This document shows positions 4,523-43,010 of a DNA stretch of 57,140 nt, piece by piece (the stretch's first letter is position 1; every line of letters begins with the position of its first letter). The notes under the pieces are model-generated. The model ran no database searches. It worked only from the letters and a program-made list of their open reading frames with translations, and had not been told where the DNA came from. The DNA is taken from contig JAEWAE010000020.1 in the NCBI GenBank assembly GCA_023391835.1, forward strand, positions 1 through 57,140. The letters run 5' to 3'. This stretch comes from Bacillota bacterium. GTDB lineage: Bacteria; Bacillota; Clostridia; Oscillospirales; Ethanoligenentaceae. Made by a program: the position numbers and the translations under genes.

Positions 4523-5755
4523 ATGGGCGAGCGCACCATCCTGCACGCCGATCTCAACGCCTTTTATGCCAGCGTGGAGTGCCTGGACCGGCCGGAGCTG
4601 CGCCGGGTGCCCATGGCCGTGGCGGGCGACGAGGCGCAGCGCCACGGTATCATCCTCGCCAAAAACGATCTGGCCCGGGCCTGCGGGGTGCAGACCGCCG
4701 AGCCCATCTGGCGCGCCCGGGAAAAATGCCCCGCCCTCGTCACCGTGCCACCCCGGCACGGGGTCTATCAGCGCTATTCGCTGCTGGTGCGGGGCATCTA
4801 TCAGCGCTATACCGACCGGGTGGAAAGTTTCGGCCCCGACGAGGCGTGGCTCGACGTCACCGGCCAGCCGGAGGAGGGGCGGGCCTTCGCCGATTTCCTG
4901 CGCGGGACGGTAAAAGCCGAAACGGGTCTGACCGTTTCGGTGGGCGTGTCGTGGAATAAAATATTCGCCAAGCTCGCCTCCGACCTTAAAAAGCCCGACG
5001 CCACCACCGTCATCGACCGGGGCAATTACCGCGCCGTCGTCTGGCCGCTGCCGGCCCAGGCGCTGCTCTTTGTGGGCCGGGCCACCGCCCGCACGTTGCT
5101 GCGCTACGGCATCCGCACCATCGGGGATATTGCGGCGGCCGACCCGGAAAAACTCCGCCGCGTCCTAGGCCGTCACGGGCGGGAGCTGTGGGTCTATGCC
5201 ACGGGGCGGGAGGATTCCCCCGTCGCCCGGTACGCCGACCCGGAGCAGATCAAGTCGGTGGGCAACAGCGTCACCCTGCCCCGGGATGTGGAAAGTCTGG
5301 CCGAAGCCGGCCGGATCGTGCTGGAGCTGGCCGAAACGGTGGCCGCCCGACTGCGGGCCCGGGGGCTGCGGTGCCGCACGGTGCAGGTCACGATGAAAGA
5401 CTGCCGTTTCCACACCGAGGAGCGGCAGGCCCCCGTGGAGCCGGCCGCCTGCACCACCGACGCCATTGCCGCCAAGGCCATGGAGCTGCTGGCCAAAAAC
5501 TGCGACTTCCGGCCCCCGCTGCGGCTCATCGGCGTGCGGGCCTGCGACCTGACCGACGCCGCCGAGGGGGAGCAGTTGACTTTCCGCGACCTGGACGGCC
5601 GCCGCGAGCGCATGGAGCAGCTTGAGCGCAGCATCGACACGCTGCGCAGCCGCTTCGGGCCGGACGCGGTCAGGCGGGCCGTCTTTCTGCCCGACTCCCG
5701 GCGGGGAAAACCGGGGGAGCCCGCCCCGGGCGAAGCGAAAAAGCCGGACGCTTAA
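4523..5755 (+). CDS. dinB: DNA polymerase IV (Y-family translesion polymerase)
   Basis: Matches the Y-family N-terminus (ILHADLNAFYASVE) and the pol IV domain order. A GGAGGG SD lies 6 nt upstream. Confidence 0.9.
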   Translation: MGERTILHADLNAFYASVECLDRPELRRVPMAVAGDEAQRHGIILAKNDLARACGVQTAEPIWRAREKCPALVTVPPRHGVYQRYSLLVRGIYQRYTDRVESFGPDEAWLDVTGQPEEGRAFADFLRGTVKAETGLTVSVGVSWNKIFAKLASDLKKPDATTVIDRGNYRAVVWPLPAQALLFVGRATARTLLRYGIRTIGDIAAADPEKLRRVLGRHGRELWVYATGREDSPVARYADPEQIKSVGNSVTLPRDVESLAEAGRIVLELAETVAARLRARGLRCRTVQVTMKDCRFHTEERQAPVEPAACTTDAIAAKAMELLAKNCDFRPPLRLIGVRACDLTDAAEGEQLTFRDLDGRRERMEQLERSIDTLRSRFGPDAVRRAVFLPDSRRGKPGEPAPGEAKKPDA

Positions 5756-8046
5756 TCCGGCTCACCGAAGGCCATGGAGCCGATGAAATTTTCTTCAAAA
5801 TCCGGCCGGTCGGCCATCTCGATATAGCGCATGCGCCGGGCGGTTTCGTCGGCCAGCGCCGCGGCCCCGCGGGAAACAAGGCACAGCCGGGCGCCCTCGC
5901 CGGCCGCGTTGCCCACCGACTCCGTACGATCCCGCAGCGCCGGAGGCAGCAGCCCCACCGCGAAGGCGGAATCCAGTCGCATATAGCTGCCGAAACCGCC
6001 CGCCACCAGCACCCGCGACACCTCGCCCGGCCCGATGCCGGAGTGTTGCAGCAACAGGCTCACACCGGCGCGGATGGCGGCTTTGGCCAGCTGCACCTGC
6101 CGCACGTCCCGCTGGGTGAACACGACGGCTGCCCGCCCCGGGGATGCCGGCACGAGGGTGAAAGCCCGCTCGTCCCCTATGCGGGTCAGGCGGGCGGCCA
6201 GGTCGGGCCGCAGACCGGCGGTTTCTTCGGGCGCACGCATCCGGCCCGAAGCCTCCACCACCCCATGACGGAAAAGCTGCGCCGCCGTATCCAGCACACC
6301 GGAGCCGCAGATGCCCGCGGCCGGGCCCCCGCCGATGACCTCGCATACCGGGTCGGCGTCGAAATTCACCCGACTGACGGCGCCGGGCACCCCGGCCATG
6401 CCGCAGCGGATGCCGCCGCCCTCGAAGGCCGGCCCGGCCGCCGCCGCGCAGCAGTTGAGCGTTTCCCGTCCGCCCAGGACGATTTCACCGTTGGTGCCAA
6501 GGTCCAGGAACAGCACCGGCTTCGGTGCCTGCGGCACGTCGCAGGCCACCAGCCCCGCCGTGATATCCGCCCCCACAAAAGCCGACACTCCGGGCAGGAT
6601 ATCCACCGGGCCGCCGACGGGCAGCCCCGTTTCCGCCGCGGTCAGCTCCATCCCCCCGGTGAAAGCAGGGGTGTAGGGGGCTTCCGCCATGGCTCCGGCG
6701 GGCGCCCCCAGCAGCAGGTGGAGCATGACCGTGTTGCCCGCCGCCGTCAGGCGGCCGATTCCCGCCGGGTCAAGCCCCCGGCGGGCGCAAAGTGCCCGAA
6801 GCATGTCGCCGAGCTGCCCGACGATGAGCGTGCGCAGTCGCTCGCCGCCGTCGGGGTGTTCCCGTACATACTGCAGGCGGGTAATCACGTCCGCCCCGTA
6901 GGGCCGCTGGCGGTTGAGGCCGCCCAGACGTTCCACCGCCGCACCGGTGCGCAGGTCGACAAGCGCACAGGCCACCGTGGTGGTGCCGATATCCACCGCC
7001 GCGCCGAAAGGCCGCCCGGCGGCAGTTACCGGGTCGGGGACAAAATCCGCCGCCCGGCCGGCCAGCGCCACCGGGCCCGAGGAAGCGGGGGCGTCGGGCA
7101 CGCGCAGGCGCAGCGGTTTTTTCACTGTCACCCGGCAGGCCAGCCGCACCCCGTCTTCCAGTTCCCGGGCGGTCAGCAGCCGCCGGTCCTCCGGCGAGGG
7201 AGCGGGCGCGCCGCAGGGAAAAATCACCCGACACTTGCCGCATACGCCCCGGCCGCCGCAGGGGCTCTCGCCCAGAAGGCCCCGGGCACGCAGCATTTCC
7301 AGCAGGTTTTCCCCCCGCCGGGCGGCGATACGGATTTCGCCCGCGGCCGTTTCGGCCGTCACCGTCACGGTTTCCTCCGCACCGGCGCGATAGGGGCAGC
7401 CCGCGCAGGGGCAGGCCCCGCAGCCCGCCGGCCCGGCACAGACACCCCGGCCGATGCCGTAGACCGCCGTCGCCGTTTTGAGCGGCGACAGTGCGCCGGA
7501 GGGGCCGAGGCGCACCCCGAGTTTTTCCGCCCGGGGCAGGCAGGCGAGCACGGCGGCCTGCTCCTCCAGCGCCCAAGGGCCGTCGCCGGGGGCGAAGCGC
7601 CCGGTGAGCGCAAGGCCCCGCGCGGCGGCATCATCGGCCAGACGGCGCGCCACAGCCGCGCCGAGCTTTTGCAGCGTGCACACGGCGAAACCGTCCGCCG
7701 CCATGGCGGCGGGGTAATCCCCGGCGGCAAAGGCGTCGCGGATATGGCCGTCGATTGCTTCCCCCACCGTACAGAGGGTGACGGCCGTCTCGCCGCACCC
7801 GGCAAACGCGCCGACTGGGAAGCCCCGGGCGAACACCGCGCCGTTTGCAAGCTCCAGCCGGTCCTCACTCCGCCCGGTGACGCGCAGGATGCGTACCGCC
7901 GCCGCGGGGTGCAGCAGCGGTCGGCAGCGGGCCATTTCCCGCTCCGCCAGCCGGCACAGCTCCGCGCCCGGCTCGGGGCCGGCCTGCATGGTACACAGCA
8001 CTGCCTGCACATCCACCTCACCCGGTATATCCTGCCACTGCCGCAT
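5752..8046 (-). CDS. RACo-like corrinoid activation protein: N-terminal MetH-type B12 activation domain + 2Fe-2S ferredoxin domain + ASKHA (DUF4445) ATPase domain
   Basis: There is a plant-type 2Fe-2S motif (CGGRGVCGKCRV) and an ASKHA fold with DIGTTTV, DLGTNGE and GGFG motifs. The N-terminal roughly 200 aa resemble the methionine-synthase reactivation domain. The ATG at 8046 is preceded by GGGAGG. Confidence 0.75.
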   Translation of the reverse strand: MRQWQDIPGEVDVQAVLCTMQAGPEPGAELCRLAEREMARCRPLLHPAAAVRILRVTGRSEDRLELANGAVFARGFPVGAFAGCGETAVTLCTVGEAIDGHIRDAFAAGDYPAAMAADGFAVCTLQKLGAAVARRLADDAAARGLALTGRFAPGDGPWALEEQAAVLACLPRAEKLGVRLGPSGALSPLKTATAVYGIGRGVCAGPAGCGACPCAGCPYRAGAEETVTVTAETAAGEIRIAARRGENLLEMLRARGLLGESPCGGRGVCGKCRVIFPCGAPAPSPEDRRLLTARELEDGVRLACRVTVKKPLRLRVPDAPASSGPVALAGRAADFVPDPVTAAGRPFGAAVDIGTTTVACALVDLRTGAAVERLGGLNRQRPYGADVITRLQYVREHPDGGERLRTLIVGQLGDMLRALCARRGLDPAGIGRLTAAGNTVMLHLLLGAPAGAMAEAPYTPAFTGGMELTAAETGLPVGGPVDILPGVSAFVGADITAGLVACDVPQAPKPVLFLDLGTNGEIVLGGRETLNCCAAAAGPAFEGGGIRCGMAGVPGAVSRVNFDADPVCEVIGGGPAAGICGSGVLDTAAQLFRHGVVEASGRMRAPEETAGLRPDLAARLTRIGDERAFTLVPASPGRAAVVFTQRDVRQVQLAKAAIRAGVSLLLQHSGIGPGEVSRVLVAGGFGSYMRLDSAFAVGLLPPALRDRTESVGNAAGEGARLCLVSRGAAALADETARRMRYIEMADRPDFEENFIGSMAFGEPD

Positions 8047-8236
8047 ACGCACACCTCCCGCGGGTTTCCCGCCGCGTGTTCCAAATTCATGAATTTGCTG
8101 CCATTATACCATGAAAGACGCTCCGCGGCACGTCGGGCGCATATTTTCTGCCGTGCCTTCGGGCCCGGTTTATGATACAATAAGGACAAAGCGCCGGGTG
8201 GGCATTGGCCCGGCGACGAAAAAAGGAGTCTTTCAG

Positions 8237-14271: not shown

Positions 14272-16101
14272 ATGACGTGGGAATCTGTCCTGCAGGCGGT
14301 GAACCGCCTTTTTCAGCAGACGGGCACGCTTTTCCGTTCCGCCCCCTCCTCCTGGCAGGGAGCGCTGGGGAATTCGGCCGTCTATTATACCATGGCCGTG
14401 CGCTGGATACTGCCGGTGCTGGCGCTGCTGATCGTGCTGCGCTGCGTGCTGCCGCTGGCAGGCGGGCGGCGCGCGCGGCGGGAATGGGGCAGCCTGATCA
14501 TGCCCGGCGGGCAGCCGCTGCCTCTGACCCATTGGGAAAATTCCGTCGGCCGCAGCCGCCTGAGCGACGTGGTCATCCGGCTGCCCTTTATTTCGCGCAG
14601 CCACGCGGTGGTCACCTTCCGCGACGGGGAATGGTCGGTGGCCGACCTGGGCTCCAAGGGCGGCGTGAAGGTCAACGGTCGGCCCGCCGAGGCGTGCACG
14701 CCGCTTCATTCGGGCGACACGCTGTCGCTGGCCGGGCTGGATCTGATTTTCCGTGACCGGCAGACCGAGGCCCCGGCGGAGCCGGCGGGGCACGCGGCAT
14801 GGGGCCGGCCATACCCGGCCGCTACGCTGCTGATGCTGACGGTCTTCCAGCTGCTGGGTGCCTTCCAGCTGTGCTTTGCCAAGGGCGGCACGGTCGCGGG
14901 GCAGACGCTGCCGGTTTTCGCCATATTCATCGGCACCGAGTGGCTCTATCTGGCTCTGGCCCGGTGGCGGCGGGTCTTTTCGGAGCTGGAGCTGCTGGCA
15001 TTTTTCCTGTGCGGCGTGGGGCTGTGGGGGGTGGCGGCCGCCGCGCCAGCCCAGCTCGGCCGGCAGGCGGCGGCTATCCTGCTGGGGCTTGCGGCTTTTT
15101 CGGCGCTTGGCTGGCTCATCCGGGATCTTGACCGGGCGCGCACGCTACGCCTAGTGCTGCTCGCGGCCGCGGTGCTGCTGATGATCGCCAACCTGCTGCT
15201 GGCGCACACAGTCAACGGCGCGCGCAACTGGATCATCCTGGGGCCGGTGCGGTTCCAGCCCATGGAGTTTGTCAAGATCGCCTTTGTCTTTTCAGGCGCG
15301 GCGACGCTCGACCATCTGCTCACCACCCGCAGCCTGACCTCTTTCCTGATTTTCACCGGGGCGTGCATCGGCACGCTGGCCTTCATCAAGGATTTCGGCA
15401 CGGCGCTGATCTTTTTCTGCGCGTTTCTGGTCATCGCTTTCATGCGTTCCGGCGACTGGCGGACTCTTGCGCTGATACTCGCGGGCGCGGGGCTGGGCGG
15501 CGGCGCCGTCGTCACCTTCATCCCCTATGTATCCTCCCGGTTTTCGACGTGGGGCCATGTCTGGCAGCACGCGGATTCCACCGGGTTCCAGCAGACCCGC
15601 ACGATGATCGCGCTGGCAAGCGGCGGGCTGCTGGGTGTGGGCGGCGGCAAGGGGTATCTAGTCAAAGTCGCGGCCGCCGACACCGACCTGGTTTTCGGCG
15701 TCATCGGGGAAGAGTGGGGGCTTGTCATCGCGGGGCTTGCGGTGCTGGTGGTCGCCTTCTGGGCGTTTTACGCCTTCTCGCGGGTGGAGGGCTGCCGCTC
15801 CTCCTTTTACGCCATCGCCTCCTGCGGAGCCGCCGCCATTCTGCTGATGCAGACGGCTCTCAATATGTTCGGCTCGGTGGATATCCTGCCGCTGACGGGC
15901 GTGACGCTGCCCTTTGTGTCAAACGGCGGCTCGTCGATGGTGGTGTGCTGGTGCCTGCTGGCGCTTATCAAATCCGCCGACCGGCGTTTCGGCACCGAAA
16001 AACCGCCCCGGCGGGGCTATGCCGCCGCACGGGACGGGGGAGACGCGGACGGCAGGGACGAAACCGATGACACCCTGGATGAAACGAGGCCGATTCCATG
16101 A
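14272..16101 (+). CDS. FHA-domain-fused FtsW/RodA/SpoVE (SEDS) family peptidoglycan glycosyltransferase
   Basis: An N-terminal FHA domain (…SRSHAVVTFRDGEWSVADLGSKGGVKVNG…) is followed by about 10 TM SEDS helices. Confidence 0.85.
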   Translation: MTWESVLQAVNRLFQQTGTLFRSAPSSWQGALGNSAVYYTMAVRWILPVLALLIVLRCVLPLAGGRRARREWGSLIMPGGQPLPLTHWENSVGRSRLSDVVIRLPFISRSHAVVTFRDGEWSVADLGSKGGVKVNGRPAEACTPLHSGDTLSLAGLDLIFRDRQTEAPAEPAGHAAWGRPYPAATLLMLTVFQLLGAFQLCFAKGGTVAGQTLPVFAIFIGTEWLYLALARWRRVFSELELLAFFLCGVGLWGVAAAAPAQLGRQAAAILLGLAAFSALGWLIRDLDRARTLRLVLLAAAVLLMIANLLLAHTVNGARNWIILGPVRFQPMEFVKIAFVFSGAATLDHLLTTRSLTSFLIFTGACIGTLAFIKDFGTALIFFCAFLVIAFMRSGDWRTLALILAGAGLGGGAVVTFIPYVSSRFSTWGHVWQHADSTGFQQTRTMIALASGGLLGVGGGKGYLVKVAAADTDLVFGVIGEEWGLVIAGLAVLVVAFWAFYAFSRVEGCRSSFYAIASCGAAAILLMQTALNMFGSVDILPLTGVTLPFVSNGGSSMVVCWCLLALIKSADRRFGTEKPPRRGYAAARDGGDADGRDETDDTLDETRPIP

Positions 16102-17438
16102 AGATACTTTCCCGGCGCGGGGCCATTCTGCTGGCGTTTCTGCTGGCCTTTTTGGTCGGTTTCGGCGTATTCGCACGCGATTACACGGCCAAGGCCGCCA
16201 CTTGGGTGAAATACCCCGCCAACAAGCATTATTATGTCAACGGCCAGCCCATCGTGGGCACGGTTTATGACCGCAACGGCCAGGTGCTGGCCCAGACAGT
16301 GGGCGGCGTGCGCAAATATAACGCGAACGCCGTCATCCGCACCGCGCTGATGCAAGATATCGGCGACTCGGCGGGCAATGTTTCCACCGGCGTGCAGGTG
16401 GTTTTCGCCAACCGGCTCAGCGGCTGGAACCTGGTGAACGGGGCCTTCCGGCTGAACACCGCAGGCAAGGATATCCGCCTGACCCTCGACGCCGACCTGT
16501 GCGCCACGGCCTATCAGGCGCTGGCGGGGCGCAGCGGCACGGTGGGGGTCTATAATTACCGCACGGGCGAAATCCTGTGCATGGCCAGTTCTCCCTCTTT
16601 CGACCCCGAAAATCCGCCGGACGTGAAGGCAAACGCCGCGGTCTACGAGGGGGTCTATCGCAATCGCTTCCTGTCGGGCACCTATACACCGGGGTCGGTG
16701 TTCAAACTGGTCACCTCTGCGGCGGCCATCGACACCATCTCGGATATCAACCAGAAGACTTATACCTGCACCGGCGTGCTCACGATCGGGCCGGATAAGG
16801 TCACCTGCCCCGAGGTGCACGGCACGGTGAATTTTAAGGAGGCGCTGGCCGACTCCTGCAACGTGGCCTTCGGCCAGATTGCCTTGCAGTTGGGCAGCTC
16901 GACGCTGCAAAGCTACGCCGAAAAAGCCGGATTCAATTCCGCTCTGAAGGTGGACGGCATCCCCACCGTGGCGGGGAAAGTGGATCTTTCCAAGGCCAAG
17001 GGAGCCAATCTCGCCTGGGCGGGCATCGGGCAATACACCGACACGGCCAATCCGCTCAATTTCATGGCCTATGTGGGGGCCATCGCCAACGGCGGCGTGC
17101 GGGTCGATCCGCGTATCCTCACCGACTCCACAAGCCCCACCGCGCAGGTGCTTTCCGCCCCCACGGCCAAGCAGTTGGGCGACATGATGCGCAACGACGT
17201 GGTGAGCAATTACGGCGACAGCCGATTCAAAGGGCTGCAGCTATGTGCCAAAACCGGCACCGCCCAGCTGGCGCCGGGGCAGAAATCCGACTCGTGGTTT
17301 GCGGGCTACATGGCCCGCAGCGACTGCCCGCTGGCCTTCGTGGTGGTGGTGGAACACGGCGGCTGGGGCATTTCGGCCGCGTCGCCCATCGCAGGCACGG
17401 TGCTGCAGGCCGCCGTAAAAAAATATGCCGGGAAATGA
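16098..17438 (+). CDS. class B penicillin-binding protein (transpeptidase), translationally coupled to upstream SEDS gene
   Basis: SxxK (SVFK), SxN and KTG(T) motifs are present with an N-terminal TM anchor. There is a 4-nt ATGA overlap with the upstream gene. Confidence 0.85.
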   Translation: MKILSRRGAILLAFLLAFLVGFGVFARDYTAKAATWVKYPANKHYYVNGQPIVGTVYDRNGQVLAQTVGGVRKYNANAVIRTALMQDIGDSAGNVSTGVQVVFANRLSGWNLVNGAFRLNTAGKDIRLTLDADLCATAYQALAGRSGTVGVYNYRTGEILCMASSPSFDPENPPDVKANAAVYEGVYRNRFLSGTYTPGSVFKLVTSAAAIDTISDINQKTYTCTGVLTIGPDKVTCPEVHGTVNFKEALADSCNVAFGQIALQLGSSTLQSYAEKAGFNSALKVDGIPTVAGKVDLSKAKGANLAWAGIGQYTDTANPLNFMAYVGAIANGGVRVDPRILTDSTSPTAQVLSAPTAKQLGDMMRNDVVSNYGDSRFKGLQLCAKTGTAQLAPGQKSDSWFAGYMARSDCPLAFVVVVEHGGWGISAASPIAGTVLQAAVKKYAGK

Positions 17439-36848: not shown

Positions 36849-39281
36849 TCACGCCAGCTCTTCGGTATATTTTTTGATGTTGGAAGCGTTGGCAAACCGG
36901 GCGATCTCTCCGCCGCGGATGACGATAAGAGTCGGGGCCTGCCGCACGCCGAAATTCTGCACAAGCTCCGCGTTTTCTTCCGCGTCCACCGTCTGGTACC
37001 TGACCCCGGCCTTGTCGAGTATGGACTTGGCCATGCGGCAGTTGGGGCAGGTCTTGGTGGTGAAAAGATAGACCGCTTCCGCCTCGGCCGGCTTTTCCTC
37101 CGTCTTCTCGGCCGCGGGCTGCTCGGCCACGGGCTGCTCGGGCAGCGGGCCGGTGTGGGTCAGATTCGAATGCAGCGGGTCGAAAAGCTTGCGCTCGCGG
37201 TATTCTTCGGCCTTGCCGTCGTTCCAGTTCTGCACCGGGCGGTAATAGCCGGTAATGCGGCTGTAGACCTCGGCCGGCTTGCCGCATTTCGGGCAGGTGA
37301 ACTGCTCGCCCGCCAGATAGCCGTGATCTTTGCAGATGGAGTAGGTCGGCGACAGGGTGTAATAGGGCAAACGGTAATTTTCGGCGATTTTGCGCACCAG
37401 ATTGGCGGCCGATTTCCAATCCGGCAGCTTTTCGCCGAGGAAGGCGTGGAACACCGTGCCCGAGGTGTAAAGGGTCTGCAGATCGTCCTGCATATCCAGC
37501 GCTTCGAAAATGTCGGCGGTGTAGCCCACCGGCAGCTGCGAGGAGTTGGTGTAATAGGGTGTGTGACCTTTTTCGGAAGCCGTAATGATGTCGGGGTAGC
37601 GTTCCACATCGTGCTTGGCCAGACGATAAGATGTGGACTCCGCCGGGGTGGCTTCGAGGTTATACAGGTCGCCGTACTGTTCCTGATAGTCGGAAAGCCG
37701 CTCCCGCATGTGGTTGAGCACATCCTGGGTGAACTGCCTGGCCTTTTCGTGGGTCAAATCCTCGCGAATCCAGTTGGCGTTGAGGCAGGCCTCGTTCATA
37801 CCAATCAGCCCGATGGTGGAAAAATGATTCTCAAAGGTGCCGAGATAGCGCCTGGTGTAGGGGTACAGACCCTCCTTGAGCAGGCGGGTGATGATGGTGC
37901 GCTTGATTTTGAGGGAACGGGCCGCCACATCCATCATGTGATCCAGCCGCTCGTAAAAGTCCGCTTCGTTCTCGGCCAGATAGCCGATGCGGGGCATATT
38001 GATGGTCACAACGCCCACCGAGCCGGTGCTTTCGCCGCTGCCGAAAAAGCCGCCCGACTTCTTGCGCAGCTCCCGCAGATCCAGCCGCAGACGGCAGCAC
38101 ATGCTGCGCACGTCGTTGGGCTCCATGTCGCTGTTGATATAGTTGGAAAAATACGGTGTGCCGTATTTGGAGGCCATTTCAAACAGAAGCCGGTTGTTTT
38201 CGGTCTCGGACCAGTCGAAATCCTTGGTGATGGAGTAGGTGGGAATGGGGTATTGGAAGCCGCGGCCGTTGGCGTCGCCCTCGATCATGGTCTCGATGAA
38301 GGCCTTGTTGACCATATCCATCTCGGGCTTGCAGTCTTTATATTTGAAATCCATTTCCTTGCCGCCGACGATGGCCGGCAGCTCCGCCAGATCGTTCGGG
38401 ACCGTCCAATCCAGCGTAATGTTGGAAAACGGAGCCTGCGTGCCCCAGCGGCTGGGGGTATTCACGCCGTAGATGAAAGACTGGATGCAGTTTTTTACGT
38501 CGTAATACGAAAGATGATCTGCCTTGACAAACGGGGCGAGGTAGGTGTCGAAGGAAGAAAATGCCTGGGCGCCCGCCCACTCATTCTGCATGATGCCCAG
38601 GAAGTTGACCATCTGGTTGCACAGCGACACCAGATGCTTGGCGGGGGCGGAGGTGATCTTGCCGGGTACGCCGCCCAGACCCTCCTGGATCAGCTGTTTA
38701 AGGCTCCAGCCCGCGCAGTAGCCGGTGAGCATCGACAGGTCATGGATGTGCATATCCGCGTTGCGGTGGGCGTCCGCGATCTCTTCGTCATAAATTTCCG
38801 ACAGCCAGTAATTGGCGGTGATGGCGCCCGAGTTGCTCAGGATCAGGCCGCCCACCGAATAGGTGACGGTGGAATTTTCCTTCACCCGCCAGTCGGTAAG
38901 TTTGACATAGCTGTCGACCACCTGCTTGTAATCGAGAATGGTCGATTTCATGTTGCGGATCTTTTCCCGCTGTTTGCGGTAAAGGATATAGCATTTTGCC
39001 ACGTCGCTGTAGCCCGCCTGGCTGAGCACCGACTCGACGCTGTCCTGGATGGCTTCGACGCCGATGCGGCCTTCCTGGATCTTCGACTCGTAATCCGATG
39101 TCACTTTCAGCGCCAGCAGGTCGATAATGTCGGGGTTATACTGTTTTTCCATCGCGTCGAACGCTTTGCGAATGGCGGTACTGATTTTGGAAAGATTAAA
39201 ATCCACCACAGCCCCGTCGCGCTTCACTACCTGATACATCTGTCGACCCTTCCTCTTCATTGTCGTTTTACATTCCGTCAA
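36849..39281 (-). CDS. nrdD: anaerobic ribonucleoside-triphosphate reductase (class III RNR) with N-terminal ATP-cone and fused C-terminal glutaredoxin/NrdH-like thioredoxin-fold domain
   Basis: The domain order is ATP-cone (MYQVVKRDGAVVDFNLSKISTAIRKAF), then the NrdD core with zinc ribbon (CPKCG) and glycyl-radical motif RITGYY. An acidic linker then leads into a CPNC thioredoxin-fold domain (…VYLFTTKTCPNCRMAKSILDKAGV…). Confidence 0.9.
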   Translation of the reverse strand: MTECKTTMKRKGRQMYQVVKRDGAVVDFNLSKISTAIRKAFDAMEKQYNPDIIDLLALKVTSDYESKIQEGRIGVEAIQDSVESVLSQAGYSDVAKCYILYRKQREKIRNMKSTILDYKQVVDSYVKLTDWRVKENSTVTYSVGGLILSNSGAITANYWLSEIYDEEIADAHRNADMHIHDLSMLTGYCAGWSLKQLIQEGLGGVPGKITSAPAKHLVSLCNQMVNFLGIMQNEWAGAQAFSSFDTYLAPFVKADHLSYYDVKNCIQSFIYGVNTPSRWGTQAPFSNITLDWTVPNDLAELPAIVGGKEMDFKYKDCKPEMDMVNKAFIETMIEGDANGRGFQYPIPTYSITKDFDWSETENNRLLFEMASKYGTPYFSNYINSDMEPNDVRSMCCRLRLDLRELRKKSGGFFGSGESTGSVGVVTINMPRIGYLAENEADFYERLDHMMDVAARSLKIKRTIITRLLKEGLYPYTRRYLGTFENHFSTIGLIGMNEACLNANWIREDLTHEKARQFTQDVLNHMRERLSDYQEQYGDLYNLEATPAESTSYRLAKHDVERYPDIITASEKGHTPYYTNSSQLPVGYTADIFEALDMQDDLQTLYTSGTVFHAFLGEKLPDWKSAANLVRKIAENYRLPYYTLSPTYSICKDHGYLAGEQFTCPKCGKPAEVYSRITGYYRPVQNWNDGKAEEYRERKLFDPLHSNLTHTGPLPEQPVAEQPAAEKTEEKPAEAEAVYLFTTKTCPNCRMAKSILDKAGVRYQTVDAEENAELVQNFGVRQAPTLIVIRGGEIARFANASNIKKYTEELA

Positions 39282-39433
39282 GCCCCTCGGGATGCCGCTG
39301 CAAAAGCCGTACCCCCCAGGTTATCGGCGCCGGCGCGGCCTTTTCCACCCCGCGGCCGAAAACACCGGAGAACCGCACCGTTGCGCCGCTCCCCGGGTCA
39401 TGCCCCCGTCATGGGGGATGTTATTGAATTGAA

Positions 39434-39449
39434 GCGCTATATATTGTGC
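39434..39449. promoter_or_regulatory. NrdR-box-like palindrome GCGCTATATATTGTGC just downstream of nrdD promoter -10 (minus-strand TGTTATAAT at 39464-39472)
   Basis: Matches 13 of 16 positions of the NrdR consensus acaCwAtATaTwGtgt. The minus-strand extended -10 TGTTATAAT and a -35 TTGTGC at 17-nt spacing were read directly. Confidence 0.35.
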
Positions 39450-39526
39450 TTTATTGCTGCTATATTATAACACGGCCAGGCGGCCCGCACAAGACATAAC
39501 GCCAGTTTATTTTCTTCCTTCTCTTC

Positions 39527-39562
39527 AAAAAAACGGAGCACCCCAATGGAGCGCTCCCCAAA
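39527..39562 (-). terminator. terminator-like hairpin + T-run after the 39581..40240 gene
   Basis: GGAGC…GCTCC stem followed by a T7 run on the minus strand. Confidence 0.35.
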
Positions 39563-39580: not shown

Positions 39581-40240
39581 TCACGACAGCGGCGTGCCGC
39601 AGTATTCACAGGGGACGGTCCGGCCTGCCGGGATGACATTGCGGGCACCGCAGCCGGGGCAGACCGTTGCTTTCATCGCGGCCGTTTCCTGCACAACCGC
39701 TTCGGGTGTTTCCTCCGCCGGGGCCGGCCGGGGCTTCACAATCTCCCGGTCGGTGTCGTGGATATAGGCGCCGGCGAAATACCCGATGTCGATCATCTTC
39801 TGCAGATCCCGCCGTACGATTTCATAGGGCAGCGCCATAGCGGCCGCGATATTGTCCAGCGATGTCTGTTCCTGATTGATCACCAAGTCAATATATTTTC
39901 TATATTTTCGGGCGTTCGCTTTCATCCGGCGGGAAACAAACAGCAGGCACACTCCGCCGCCGCCGAAAAGGACCGTCGCCGCGATCATACCAAATACGGG
40001 GTCGCCGCCGCTCGACGTATCCAGATTGCCTGTCAAGCCGCCCAGAAGATAAAAAGCAGCCATGGCGATGAGGACCCAGCCGACGATGCCTACGGTTTTA
40101 CTGCTTTGGAAGGTGACGGACTTATCCTGCCCCATTTTCATACACAGCAGCACGAGCCCTACCGGCCAGAAGAGGACCAGAAGAATGACGACCGCTTTCC
40201 AGGATATACTTTTACTCTGAGACAGATGGGCGGACTTCAT
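39581..40240 (-). CDS. membrane protein with cytoplasmic wHTH-like segment (…EIVRRDLQKMIDIGYF…) and C-terminal zinc ribbon (CPGCG…CEYCG); paralog of next gene
   Basis: Two to three N-terminal TM helices and a C-terminal C-x2-C-x14-C-x2-C motif. A GAAGGGGGC SD lies upstream. Confidence 0.6.
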   Translation of the reverse strand: MKSAHLSQSKSISWKAVVILLVLFWPVGLVLLCMKMGQDKSVTFQSSKTVGIVGWVLIAMAAFYLLGGLTGNLDTSSGGDPVFGMIAATVLFGGGGVCLLFVSRRMKANARKYRKYIDLVINQEQTSLDNIAAAMALPYEIVRRDLQKMIDIGYFAGAYIHDTDREIVKPRPAPAEETPEAVVQETAAMKATVCPGCGARNVIPAGRTVPCEYCGTPLS

Positions 40241-40253
40241 GTCGTTGCCCCCT

Positions 40254-40817
40254 TCACTGCAGCTGAGTGCCGCAGTAATCGCATGTTCCCTGGATCCCCT
40301 TCGGGCGGGAATTGGCCGCGCCGCAGCCGGGGCAGGTCACCGTCTCCATCTCGGCCTCGGCGGTCTTTACCTGCACCCGCACCGGGTCGGCAGCCTCAGG
40401 CTGCGGCTGACCGATCACAATCAGGTCGTTGCCCCGGTCGATCTGCGCATTTGCAAAAAAGCGGGAATCGATCATCTTCTGCAGATCACGGGTGACAAAA
40501 TCCACAGACTGCGAGGAGGCGGTGGCAAGCTGGGTGATTGCAAAGATATGTTCCACCGAAATGAGATTGACATACTGTTTAAAACGGCGAAGCCTGCGCT
40601 TGGTCCGCCAACCGTACGCTGCTAGCAGAACTCCTGCCGCCGCGAAAGCGGCAAAAATCACCGCCAGCATCACCTGCGACCCGGGCGTCGCGCTCCCCGG
40701 GTCGGCCAGCACCACGATAAAACAGATCAGGAAAAAACCGCCGATCAGGTACCCGAAGATACTGGCCATCTTGCCCGCCACTTTGGCGGCCCCTACCGCC
40801 ACTTTAGACGTATCCAT
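40254..40817 (-). CDS. membrane protein with wHTH-like segment (…FVTRDLQKMIDSRFF…) and C-terminal zinc ribbon (CPGCG…CDYCG); paralog of previous gene
   Basis: It has the same architecture and shares motifs with the 39581..40240 gene. The ATG at 40817 follows AGAGGGGGA and lies 1 nt after the stop of the upstream gene. Confidence 0.6.
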   Translation of the reverse strand: MDTSKVAVGAAKVAGKMASIFGYLIGGFFLICFIVVLADPGSATPGSQVMLAVIFAAFAAAGVLLAAYGWRTKRRLRRFKQYVNLISVEHIFAITQLATASSQSVDFVTRDLQKMIDSRFFANAQIDRGNDLIVIGQPQPEAADPVRVQVKTAEAEMETVTCPGCGAANSRPKGIQGTCDYCGTQLQ

Positions 40818-40818
40818 C

Positions 40819-41499
40819 TCAAAATCCCCCTCTTCTGCCCGCATCCGGCCGCGTCAGCAGCTTCTGAAGCTGCTCCATGCTCCGCTCGATATCCGACGGG
40901 GGCGTGTCGGCACGCCCCAATGCCTGTTCCAGCTCAGCCATCCGTGTCCGTATTTCATCCGCCGGCCGATGCACGCCGGGCTGGCCGGCCAGACGGGCCG
41001 CTTCACTGAGCGCCCGCAGCCGGCCGCCATAAGGCGTTCCGCCGAAATCGGCCGTCAATCGGTTCAGCGCTGTCCCAATCGGCTCCATGGTTGAATCGGA
41101 GCCGGCATGGCGGTCAACGGCGGCAACCCGGATGGAAAAATACAGCAGCAGCACCGCCGCCAGCGCCGCCGCGGCAAACAGCAGCACACTGACCAGCACA
41201 AAGCGGTTCACATGGCGGCCGAACATGCCGGACAGACACGCGCACACCACCGTCGCAATGAAATAGAGCCCCAGCACCGTCGAAATCCCGGCGCGCGCCA
41301 GCAGTGGATGGAACGCCCCGGGCAAACGCCGAAGCGCCGCCACTCCCCCCAAAAGCATCGCTTCGGCAAAGAGCACCGTGCCCAGTGCCCAGCCCGTCAC
41401 AGCGGTCTTTGAAAAATCCGCCAGAAAATACACGCACAGGGTGGCCCCAATCAGGATGACTCCCGCGCACCACCCCAGCAGACTCCGGAGCTTATCCAT
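40819..41499 (-). CDS. polytopic membrane protein (4-5 TM) with C-terminal coiled-coil soluble region
   Basis: Hydrophobic N-terminal 140 aa, then a charged helical tail (…EIRTRMAELEQALGRAD…SMEQLQKLL…). A GGGAGAG SD precedes the ATG at 41499. Confidence 0.55.
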   Translation of the reverse strand: MDKLRSLLGWCAGVILIGATLCVYFLADFSKTAVTGWALGTVLFAEAMLLGGVAALRRLPGAFHPLLARAGISTVLGLYFIATVVCACLSGMFGRHVNRFVLVSVLLFAAAALAAVLLLYFSIRVAAVDRHAGSDSTMEPIGTALNRLTADFGGTPYGGRLRALSEAARLAGQPGVHRPADEIRTRMAELEQALGRADTPPSDIERSMEQLQKLLTRPDAGRRGGF

Positions 41500-41504
41500 T
41501 CCAT

Positions 41505-42818
41505 TCACTCTCCCTGCAGTCTTTCTCCGCATTCGGGGCAGAATTTTGGAGTGCCCGCGATCGTAGCGCCGCACTTGGGGCAGGCCTTGACCAGCGGCGC
41601 GCCGCACTCGGGGCAGAATTTTGCCGCGGGCTCAACGTCCGCACCACACTTGGGGCACTTTTTCGGCAGCGGCTTGCCGCACGCCGGGCACTTATCGGCG
41701 TCATCCGGCATATCGGCCCCGCAGGCCGGGCAGGGATGGTACGGTTTGCCGCATGCCGGGCAAAATTTTACCGTGCGGGCAAACAACGCACCGCATCGGC
41801 TGCAGGTCGCCCGGTCCGTATCCTTCGCTCCACCGGCCCCGGGCCCGGGCTGATCGGTGTCAAACCCGCAGTGGGGGCAAAAACGCGCATTCGGGTCCAT
41901 CACCGTCTGGCAGCGGGGGCACTGCCTGCTCTCGGCGGTGTGGATATTCCCGGCGATGCTGCCGGCCTGACTGCCGAACGCTCCGCCGATACCCACGCCC
42001 ATCCCCAGCCCGATACCGGCGCCCATCAGGCCCGACTGCCCGCTGCCCGGATTCGTGGCGGCGCCTTCCAGTGTATCGAATGAACGCTCCTGCACATAAT
42101 TGTAGCCGACGATATTCATTTCCGCCCGCTTGGCCAGAGCATCCTTGAGCTTTTTGACGGCGGAGTCGTCCTCCGGTACATTGATGTCGTTGACAAAAAA
42201 GTTGATCAGGTGGATGCCGTATTCGTCCAGAACCGGGACCATCCGTTGCTGGAGAAAATCGGAAATTTCCTCCAGATAGGCGTTTATTTCCAAAACGCTG
42301 ATTCCCTTTTGCACCAGATAGGACGAGATGGCGTCTTTCGCCTTGGTCAAATACAGCCCCCGGAAATATTGCACAATGTTGGTTTTGTCAAAGGTGGGCA
42401 GAGTACCCACCAGTCTGGTCAGGAAACGGCGGGAATCGCCGATCTGAACGCCGAACTGGCCATAGGACCGCACCGGCACAAACACCTGATATTTCGGGTC
42501 CTGCAGTTGGATGGGTGTGGGCGTGCCCCACTTGATATCAAGCGAAACGGCCTTGTTTATGTACCAGACCTCCGCCGTGAAAGGGGATCGTCCGCCAAAG
42601 GGCAGATTGACGAGCTTGCTGAGCAGCGGAATGTTGGCCGTTTCCAGCGTGTGCCGGCCGGGGCCGAGCACATCCATCGCCTGCCCGCCCTTAAACAGGA
42701 TCGCCTCCTGCGATTCGTTGACAATCAGCTGGGTCCAGGTGCCCAATTCCTCACTGGGGTATTTCCATGCAAACACATCGGGGTTGCCGTTGTATTTGAG
42801 CACTTCCACAATCGCCAT
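41505..42818 (-). CDS. SPFH/band-7 domain protein (YdjI/COG4260 'virion core protein'-like) with Gly-rich linker and five tandem C-terminal zinc ribbons
   Basis: The N-terminal roughly 250 aa match an SPFH fold (…AILFKGGQAMDVLGPGRHTLETANIPLL…). The C-terminus has 5x (C-x2-C-x10-12-C-x2-C). Confidence 0.8.
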   Translation of the reverse strand: MAIVEVLKYNGNPDVFAWKYPSEELGTWTQLIVNESQEAILFKGGQAMDVLGPGRHTLETANIPLLSKLVNLPFGGRSPFTAEVWYINKAVSLDIKWGTPTPIQLQDPKYQVFVPVRSYGQFGVQIGDSRRFLTRLVGTLPTFDKTNIVQYFRGLYLTKAKDAISSYLVQKGISVLEINAYLEEISDFLQQRMVPVLDEYGIHLINFFVNDINVPEDDSAVKKLKDALAKRAEMNIVGYNYVQERSFDTLEGAATNPGSGQSGLMGAGIGLGMGVGIGGAFGSQAGSIAGNIHTAESRQCPRCQTVMDPNARFCPHCGFDTDQPGPGAGGAKDTDRATCSRCGALFARTVKFCPACGKPYHPCPACGADMPDDADKCPACGKPLPKKCPKCGADVEPAAKFCPECGAPLVKACPKCGATIAGTPKFCPECGERLQGE

Positions 42819-42855
42819 AAAATCCCCGCCTTATTGTAATGAGCTTTCACGGCCA

Positions 42856-42897
42856 TTTCCTATTATAAGGAAGTCGGGATGGCATTACAATAGGAAA
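42856..42897 (-). promoter_or_regulatory. minus-strand promoter TTGTAA-N17-TATAAT for the SPFH operon, embedded in nested inverted repeats (ATTTCCTATT / CATTACAATA)
   Basis: Forward ATTATA (42862-42867) and TTACAA (42885-42890) give the -10 and -35 on the minus strand. The inverted-repeat arms were read directly. Confidence 0.4.
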
Positions 42898-43010
42898 TAC
42901 GCGTGCCCGGCACATTTCGGCCCCGATGCTCCGCCGGCCCTTTCTTGCTTTTTGGACGAAAACGGTTTATTCTGAAATTATATATCCGTCATCCGCAGGG
43001 AGGGTCTGTC

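Follow-up and report, generated by a model that had tools for sequence, protein, structure and literature searches.

Gene organization and domain architecture of the module

The 57,140-nucleotide stretch of contig JAEWAE010000020.1 analyzed here (the window) carries four consecutive open reading frames (ORFs) on the minus strand between positions 39581 and 42818, encoding an SPFH protein with a C-terminal zinc-ribbon array and three small membrane proteins, termed P2, P3, and P4. Gene 1 (41505..42818, minus strand) encodes the SPFH protein of 437 amino acids. It is followed on the same strand by the genes for P2 (40819..41499; 226 amino acids, with an internal ATG as the start), P3 (40254..40817; 187 amino acids), and P4 (39581..40240; 219 amino acids). 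With internal ATG starts, the gaps between the genes amount to 5, 1, and 13 nucleotides, matching the range of 1 to 13 nucleotides given in an earlier note on this DNA. The same four protein lengths result from an independent gene call on a 132-kb metagenome contig that is 99% identical, and a Shine-Dalgarno-like purine-rich stretch lies 6 to 10 nucleotides 5' of the start of each of the four genes.

The near-consensus promoter and the downstream terminator of the earlier note are both found as consensus matches at the places where an operon requires them, and their function is predicted. The promoter-like site, TTGTAA-17 nucleotides-TATAAT (42862..42890, minus strand), resembles a sigma-70 promoter and matches 10 of 12 consensus positions. 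It is the best such site in the region and is intergenic, ∼40 nucleotides 5' of the SPFH start codon; the scanned region as a whole holds four promoter-like sites, versus 1.4 ± 1.4 in shuffled sequences. The intrinsic-terminator-like site (39527..39557, minus strand), with a 10-bp stem containing 7 GC pairs, lies 24 nucleotides past the P4 stop codon, and its hairpin and run of seven T residues are placed at 39557..39535. Another terminator-like hairpin occurs within the P2 coding region (41145..41172, minus strand), in an Ala/Leu-rich stretch coding for transmembrane (TM) sequence, and is probably spurious. A scan of the whole window against Rfam gives zero matches and thus ties no riboswitch or other RNA element to the operon or to the leader of the neighboring nrdD gene. 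The four genes are a real operon and, as described below, a conserved unit.

The SPFH protein shows a strong Pfam match to Band_7_1 (PF13421; E = 2e-45; 155.5 bits, with the curated cutoff at 24), covering profile positions 8 to 198 of 211, together with matches to DZR (E = 3e-33) and five matches to Zn_Ribbon_1. By these profile matches, the protein is a member of the SPFH superfamily and of its Band_7_1 subfamily (YdjI/SamI type, COG4260). The Pfam profile places the SPFH domain at residues 22 to 217 (42168..42755, minus strand). It is followed by a short helix of ∼30 residues and by a Gly-rich hydrophobic linker (residues 251 to 296; 41931..42068, minus strand), delimited by sequence, hydropathy, and conservation. 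The remainder of the protein (residues 297 to 437; 41508..41930, minus strand) is an array of five zinc ribbons of the type C-x2-C-x10-C-x2-C, whose motifs lie at residues 300 to 317, 339 to 356, 363 to 380, 388 to 405, and 413 to 430. No TM segment, including an N-terminal TM helix or hairpin, is predicted (no 19-residue window with a mean hydropathy of ≥1.6). Hydropathy, Pfam profiles, and motif positions thus agree on a protein without a TM segment, with a Gly-rich linker and five ribbons, as had been read from the DNA before. A PDB sequence search with the SPFH protein returns nothing at an E value of ≤0.01.

Conservation of this protein is pronounced. Region 1 to 217 shows a mean identity of 76% to the window protein over 81 homologues, and exactly five zinc ribbons are present in 81 of 82 SPFH homologues. 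The Gly-rich linker (...GLMGAGIGLGMGVGIGGAF..., with the conserved core LMGAGxGLGMG) reaches a mean identity of 63% among homologues, which is unusually high for a linker. Its hydrophobicity is borderline, with a hand-computed Kyte-Doolittle mean of ∼1.5 for 18 residues that comes close to the level of a TM segment, and it may form a glycine zipper in contact with the membrane. In one metagenome contig (L097, 1371-2685), the SPFH domain (283 amino acids) and the zinc-ribbon part (137 amino acids) are called as separate adjoining genes, followed by P2, P3, and P4; a true split and an assembly indel are both possible.

P2 shows four TM helices by hydropathy, followed by a cytoplasmic tail of ∼95 residues with the C-terminus ...RRGGF. 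The four TM helices fall within the four to five proposed in the earlier note, and a fifth is not found; the coiled-coil tail proposed there takes the form of four short helices and a disordered terminal part in an AlphaFold2 model, which was built from only 5 sequences and is of low confidence (predicted local distance difference test score [pLDDT] of 63). P2 has no match in Pfam, NCBIfam, PADLOC, or PHROGs, and its profile finds only TM or coiled-coil noise in the PDB. A word-index homologue search with P2 alone recovers only its own cluster, and a concatenated P2-plus-P3 profile recovers four P2 proteins only. Three relatives of P2 carry a weak precomputed match to PF26454 (DUF8133), and none is recorded for the 99%-identical protein P0121; no P2 member matched this family in the local Pfam scan, the local copy of which possibly does not contain that model. 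A few P2 members show weak holin or SLATT-type matches (best E = 0.0013 to 0.0028), of which the holin matches are probably due to TM-helix composition.

The P2 copies located 3' of the SPFH gene mostly end in K-[R/V/L/I]-G-[G/S/K]-[F/Y/I]. The strict pattern is present in 58 of the 87 P2 tails listed, and the matching set includes 147-residue forms without the helical tail. A second P2 paralogue is located 5' of the SPFH gene in 13 loci (L031, L041, L043, L057, L069, L072, L073, L077 to L079, and L084 to L086). In 12 of these 13, the upstream paralogue ends in RNMQI[RK]L[ML]..x[IV] and not in K-x-G-G-F/Y/I, and the copy of L073 ends differently again.

P3 and P4 are paralogues (37% identity; E = 1e-25) with the TM, winged-helix, and zinc-ribbon layout already recognized in the earlier note. 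In P3, two TM helices precede a basic juxtamembrane helix; the PCI-like winged helix comes next, and the zinc ribbon closes the protein at its C-terminus. P4 contains three hydrophobic helices, the basic juxtamembrane helix, the PCI-like winged helix (residues ∼108 to 168), a linker, and the zinc ribbon (residues 189 to 215). The AlphaFold2 model of P4, based on an alignment of 100 homologues (pLDDT, 90.6; predicted template modeling score, 0.81), shows helices at residues 128 to 135 and 139 to 152 and a hairpin at residues 159 to 168, and the last TM helix runs on into the strongly basic (+5) juxtamembrane helix. Foldseek finds local winged-helix matches for this model with a probability of up to 0.94. 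The P3/P4 profile matches RPN7 at an E value of 0.004, and 6 of 98 P3/P4 members show a Pfam PCI match. The middle domain of P3 and P4 is therefore modeled as a three-helix, β-hairpin winged helix that is PCI-like at the fold level only. In sequence profile and fold, it resembles the PCI winged helices of DDRGK1 of the UFM1 ligase and of subunits of the proteasome lid and the COP9 signalosome (CSN), with only 11 to 14% identity, and no homology is claimed; P3 and P4, unlike those proteins, are bacterial and combine two to three TM helices with a zinc ribbon. DDRGK1 is described as membrane anchored.

The winged helix raises the question of DNA binding. P3 and P4 could be membrane-tethered transcription factors that bind DNA, autoregulate the operon, and are controlled in their activity by the SPFH protein; the earlier note likewise supposed that these proteins make the operon self-regulating. 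In favor of this are the confident prediction of a winged-helix fold and a published speculation that the zinc ribbon of Bacillus YdjG binds DNA (PMC9239133). Against this stand the net charge of the winged-helix core, which is acidic (mean of −2.3 over 100 homologues), and its helix 3, where the nearly invariant positions of P4 are D145, M149, and I150 rather than basic or polar DNA-reading residues. The first helix of the domain is also continuous with the last TM helix, which puts the domain against the membrane. With its acidic, PCI-like character and the D/M/I pattern of helix 3, the domain looks more like a binder of proteins than of DNA. The winged helix itself is real, but these features speak against self-regulation through it, and a role of P3 and P4 as transcription factors is quite unlikely.

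The P3/P4 family is large, with 1,179 clusters (50% identity) at an E value of ≤1e-10, and Pfam and NCBIfam scans that included homologues assign no characterized family to P2, P3, or P4. Proteins of ∼142 residues encoded 3' of the module (10604-11032 in L043, 10601-11029 in L079, and about 6 more loci) open with a zinc ribbon of the P3/P4 type (MSVYRCESCGA...CEYCGT...) and apparently have neither a TM segment nor the winged helix.

Relationship to the pspA-ydjGHI operon of Bacillus subtilis

The nearest described system is the pspA-ydjGHI (samGHI) operon of B. subtilis, which was recovered for comparison from a metagenome contig through a primer sequence printed in an earlier study (PMC8581546). 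In Pfam, PspA of this operon matches PspA_IM30 (E = 1.4e-41), YdjG shows N-terminal zinc ribbons, YdjH matches TPM_phosphatase (E = 3.1e-23), and YdjI matches Band_7_1 (E = 8.3e-43) and carries one C-terminal zinc ribbon. The linker of YdjI in front of this ribbon is Met/Gly-rich and of low complexity and lies at the position matching the Gly-rich linker of the window protein. The membrane proteins YdjG and YdjH are required for recruiting soluble YdjI to the membrane, and YdjH binds YdjI (PMC8581546). SamGH signaling is restrained by SamI independently of PspA (bioRxiv 10.64898/2026.02.06.704340).

The SPFH protein of the window shows 22% identity to YdjI over 249 residues in BLASTP (E = 5e-17), and the hidden Markov model of its family matches YdjI with an E value of 3.7e-25 in a four-protein database. 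Its fifth zinc ribbon is 54% identical to the ribbon of YdjI. By sequence, the protein is a homologue of YdjI, as proposed before, and belongs to a clearly separate subfamily. Both are soluble SPFH proteins of the Band_7_1 type, and in both a low-complexity linker leads to DZR-type zinc-ribbon sequence at the C-terminus. The earlier note saw the zinc ribbons as redistributed by fusion to the SPFH protein; this does not hold, since YdjI has the same layout with one ribbon (Pfam; PMC8581546, PMC11237479); the difference lies in the number, five in the window protein compared to one in YdjI.

The two operons share further features of architecture. In each, the SPFH gene stands together with genes for small membrane proteins of two kinds, and one kind carries a cytoplasmic zinc ribbon of the type C-x2-C-G-A...C-x-[FY]-C-G. 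The membrane partners end in Gly-Gly/Ser-aromatic, as in YdjH (...SRGSF), YdjG (...MGGGF), and P2 (...KRGG[FY]).

The membrane partners themselves differ. P2 shows no similarity to YdjH in BLAST or profile searches (E > 1), and P2, P3, and P4 have no TPM match at an E value of ≤1, compared to 3.1e-23 for YdjH as the control. TPM is likewise absent from all 20 families found for 85 P2 members and from the 25 families listed, out of 47, for 98 P3/P4 members. P3 and P4 follow the order TM, winged helix, and zinc ribbon, in contrast to the order of two zinc ribbons, globular domain, and TM in YdjG (PMC11237479); the YdjG-type layout with two N-terminal zinc ribbons, an NTF2-like globular domain, and a C-terminal TM helix is not seen in P3 or P4. 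The sole similarity of P3/P4 to YdjG is to its second zinc ribbon (residues 47 to 78; domain E = 1.5e-5). The resemblance of the C-termini and this ribbon match are leads only. Of the ydjGHI-type module proposed in the earlier note, the homology of the SPFH protein to YdjI stands, and the correspondence of the membrane proteins does not, apart from the ribbon shared with YdjG.

The operons further differ in gene order, with the SPFH gene first in the module and last in Bacillus, and in the promoter, which is sigma-A-like in the window compared to the sigma-W-dependent Bacillus operon (PMC8581546). The module contains no PspA/IM30 gene, as the earlier note had stated. A PspA_IM30 gene is found neither within ±10 kb of the module nor among 20 further ORFs of the window that were profiled (several others were not), nor does one recur beside the module in the loci described below; the Bacillus PspA, with its E value of 1.4e-41, served as the positive control.

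Conservation, distribution, and genomic surroundings

The architecture of an SPFH domain with five zinc ribbons is present in at least 120 database clusters, the best 120 of which comprise proteins of 427 to 451 residues with 65 to 72% identity. With each species represented by one genome, a scan yields 175 relatives of the SPFH protein; the 82 loci analyzed consist of the best 80 of these 175, one complete genome, and the window. In 76 of the 82 loci, a P2 gene of the same orientation lies 3' of the SPFH gene, usually with a gap of <30 nucleotides, and at least one P3/P4 copy follows the SPFH gene in 78 of 82, with a copy number of 1 to 4. Loci without the full module are mostly truncated at contig ends. 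The gene-neighborhood conservation across Clostridia for which the earlier note had called is thus borne out. The same module is also present on four independently retrieved contigs, some of which were reached via relatives of P2 or P4.

All-versus-all clustering of the flanking ORFs of the 82 loci reveals no further neighbor family in more than 12 loci, the commonest being a generic ABC ATPase. No PspA, protease, NfeD protein, or regulator is conserved beside the module in these loci. Across Clostridia, the SPFH proteins show 59 to 72% identity to the window protein, compared to 15 to 45% for the partners. The far lower conservation of the partners points to a scaffold under strong constraint, not to a recent transfer of the whole block.

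The distribution of the module is essentially limited to Clostridia; its carriers include Clostridium cadaveris, C. amylolyticum, Anaerosporobacter mobilis, and Desulfosporosinus meridiei. Five loci (L009, L010, L037, L081, and L083) derive from metagenome-assembled genomes labeled Desulfuromonadales, Deltaproteobacteria, Solirubrobacterales, Erysipelotrichaceae, and Myxococcota. They show a GC content of 35 to 49% and Clostridia-like modules; the labels Desulfuromonadales, Deltaproteobacteria, Solirubrobacterales, and Myxococcota, at least, are probably the result of misbinning or mislabeling, and a spread across phyla is rejected. The papers covered by the literature search contain no description of the module as a whole.

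The variable surroundings of the module also allow a reading as an antiphage or abortive-infection system, in which the SPFH zinc-ribbon protein would restrain a membrane-disrupting effector (P2 or P3/P4) until infection. Flanking genes vary among the loci, as does the copy number of P3/P4; the locus of Desulfosporosinus meridiei adjoins a phage integrase, and ORF families resembling tyrosine recombinases (judged from sequence, not profiled) occur in ∼11 of the 82 flanks. The module is also found on three IMG/VR contigs, and the weak holin and SLATT-type matches of a few P2 members would fit a membrane-active effector. On the other side, PADLOC-DB 2.0 returns nothing for the SPFH protein or P2 and only zinc-ribbon noise for P3 and P4 (E ≥ 0.007), and the module contains no enzymatic effector domain. 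Searches of 50,697 phage records and 72,556 plasmid records yield no close relative, and the 3 matches are all that 2.9 million viral contigs provide. The identity of the SPFH protein across Clostridial families is unlike that of fast-evolving defense genes, and the neighbors in the window are housekeeping genes, namely, nrdD and the genes for UDP-glucose dehydrogenase and acyl-ACP thioesterase. A defense function is accordingly quite unlikely. A phage link suggested by the old annotation "virion core protein" was rejected on the same phage, plasmid, and viral searches, which gave no close relatives except for the 3 contigs of the viral collection. A distant homologue is encoded on a Butyrivibrio plasmid in an unrelated gene context.

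The window as a whole shows the gene content of an ordinary chromosome, with DinB, a RACo-like protein, an MFS transporter, an FHA-FtsW protein with a penicillin-binding protein, a CLC channel, an HtrA-like protease, and NrdD. The FHA domain is fused to FtsW/RodA (SEDS) in a protein of 609 residues, followed with a 4-nucleotide overlap by a penicillin-binding transpeptidase of 446 residues (14272-17438, plus strand). The RACo-like protein of 766 residues (Raco_middle and RACo_C_ter; 5752-8052, minus strand) coincides with a GC peak of 0.72 to 0.735 at 5 to 8 kb, and an antisense ORF of equal length is present at this gene. The gene 3' of the operon (36849-39530, minus strand) encodes the anaerobic ribonucleotide reductase NrdD with a C-terminal glutaredoxin/thioredoxin-like domain. 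Its leader of ∼250 nucleotides (39282-39530) has no Rfam match and is therefore not a known riboswitch. A gene for a MazE-antitoxin-like protein of 76 residues lies directly 5' of an ABC-2 transporter pair (∼34.1 to 35.8 kb of the window; 15668-17381 in L087), on the opposite strand and ∼5 kb beyond the operon terminator, past nrdD.

Proposed assembly and its place among SPFH systems

The SPFH, P2, and P3/P4 families very probably form one membrane-associated complex. In the proposed arrangement, the products of the operon would assemble into a three-family complex beneath the membrane. The SPFH protein would oligomerize like other SPFH proteins, and the small membrane proteins, whose conserved parts face the cytoplasm, would recruit it to the cytoplasmic side of the membrane. 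P2, with its four TM helices, helical tail, and conserved free C-terminus K-x-G-G-aromatic/aliphatic, would provide a first anchor, and P3/P4, with one to four copies per locus, a second. The five zinc ribbons on their conserved Gly-rich tether would serve as a multivalent connector to the P2 and P3/P4 adaptors, and further docking would run through the PCI-like winged helix of P3/P4 and through the free P2 C-terminus; the tether may also touch the membrane. P2 and P3/P4 would then be either anchors or clients of the SPFH oligomer. By analogy with SamGHI, the assembly most likely serves the homeostasis of the envelope or membrane by organizing or restraining membrane proteins, in this case without an operon-encoded PspA, or its physiological role would lie in the control of the membrane partners.

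Other SPFH systems offer partial parallels. In the SPFH-NfeD pairs (stomatin/QmcA-YbbJ and FloT/YqiK with YuaF/YqiJ) and in HflK/C-FtsH, the gene for an SPFH scaffold also adjoins that for a small multi-TM partner, with a presumed role in the organization of membrane proteins. Unlike these, the SPFH protein of the module is of the Band_7_1 type and has neither an N-terminal TM helix or hairpin nor a long coiled coil. The NfeD domain has no match in the module proteins or in the scanned P2 homologues, and no protease is encoded nearby. Band_7_1 proteins with other C-terminal adaptors, such as SHOCT, likewise carry a small C-terminal module thought to mediate oligomerization or binding (PMC3581485). 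The module differs from them in its strictly pentameric zinc-ribbon array and its dedicated P2 and P3/P4 partners.

A further possibility is that the SPFH complex is the regulator or cage of a membrane enzyme encoded elsewhere, for example a protease, synthase, or transporter, and that P2 and P3/P4 are adaptors only. Such a role corresponds to general SPFH behavior, as in HflK/C-FtsH, QmcA-YbbJ, and the StlP-cellulose synthase system (bioRxiv 10.64898/2026.02.06.704340), and would account for the strong surface conservation of the SPFH protein. It is at odds with the lack of a conserved protease, NfeD protein, or other enzyme beside the module in the 82 loci and with the absence from the SPFH protein of the N-terminal TM helix and long coiled coil of cage-forming relatives. 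An enzyme cage in this sense is distinctly unlikely, and it overlaps with the scaffold proposed above rather than excluding it.

The module, whose partners belong to no characterized family, is best read as the earlier note described it, namely, as an uncharacterized variant of an SPFH-based system for membrane scaffolding or stress; its stress function would follow from analogy. The full reading as a SamGHI-like scaffold with a role in stress is given a probability of roughly 55%. Several points weigh against it. The operon has no PspA. Neither P2 nor P3/P4 is a homologue of its Bacillus counterpart (YdjH and YdjG, respectively), which leaves one shared component and the architecture as the basis of the analogy. 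Gly-rich C-termini are common in TPM-domain proteins, and the shared C-terminal motif may be a coincidence. The model of P2 is of low confidence (pLDDT of 63). The promoter is of the consensus type and not of a stress-sigma type and therefore gives no hint of stress induction. The helix of ∼30 residues after the SPFH domain is unlike the long coiled coils that build the cages of HflK/C or flotillin.

A more far-reaching version, offered tentatively and considered unlikely, sees in the module a self-contained, PspA-independent SPFH machine, in which the pentavalent ribbons on a membrane-dipping glycine-zipper tether would cluster P3/P4 and capture the K-R-G-G-F C-terminus of P2. If true, this would add a new principle to the assembly of bacterial SPFH microdomains and could represent an ancestral, PspA-free function of the YdjI/SamI family.

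The SPFH family itself was already known; new are the fixed count of five zinc ribbons, the nonhomologous partners, and the PspA-free operon. SPFH proteins of the YdjI/SamI type have been studied only in B. subtilis, in which their role and PspA are intertwined. The module represents a widespread Clostridial version with no PspA gene of its own, with other anchors, and with the SPFH protein under very strong constraint. It thereby offers a natural system for studying a Band_7_1 scaffold on its own, the purpose of the zinc ribbons, and the docking of soluble SPFH proteins to membranes. At the same time, two unannotated families gain a functional context: P2 (DUF8133-like) and the family that joins TM helices to a PCI-like winged helix followed by a zinc ribbon.

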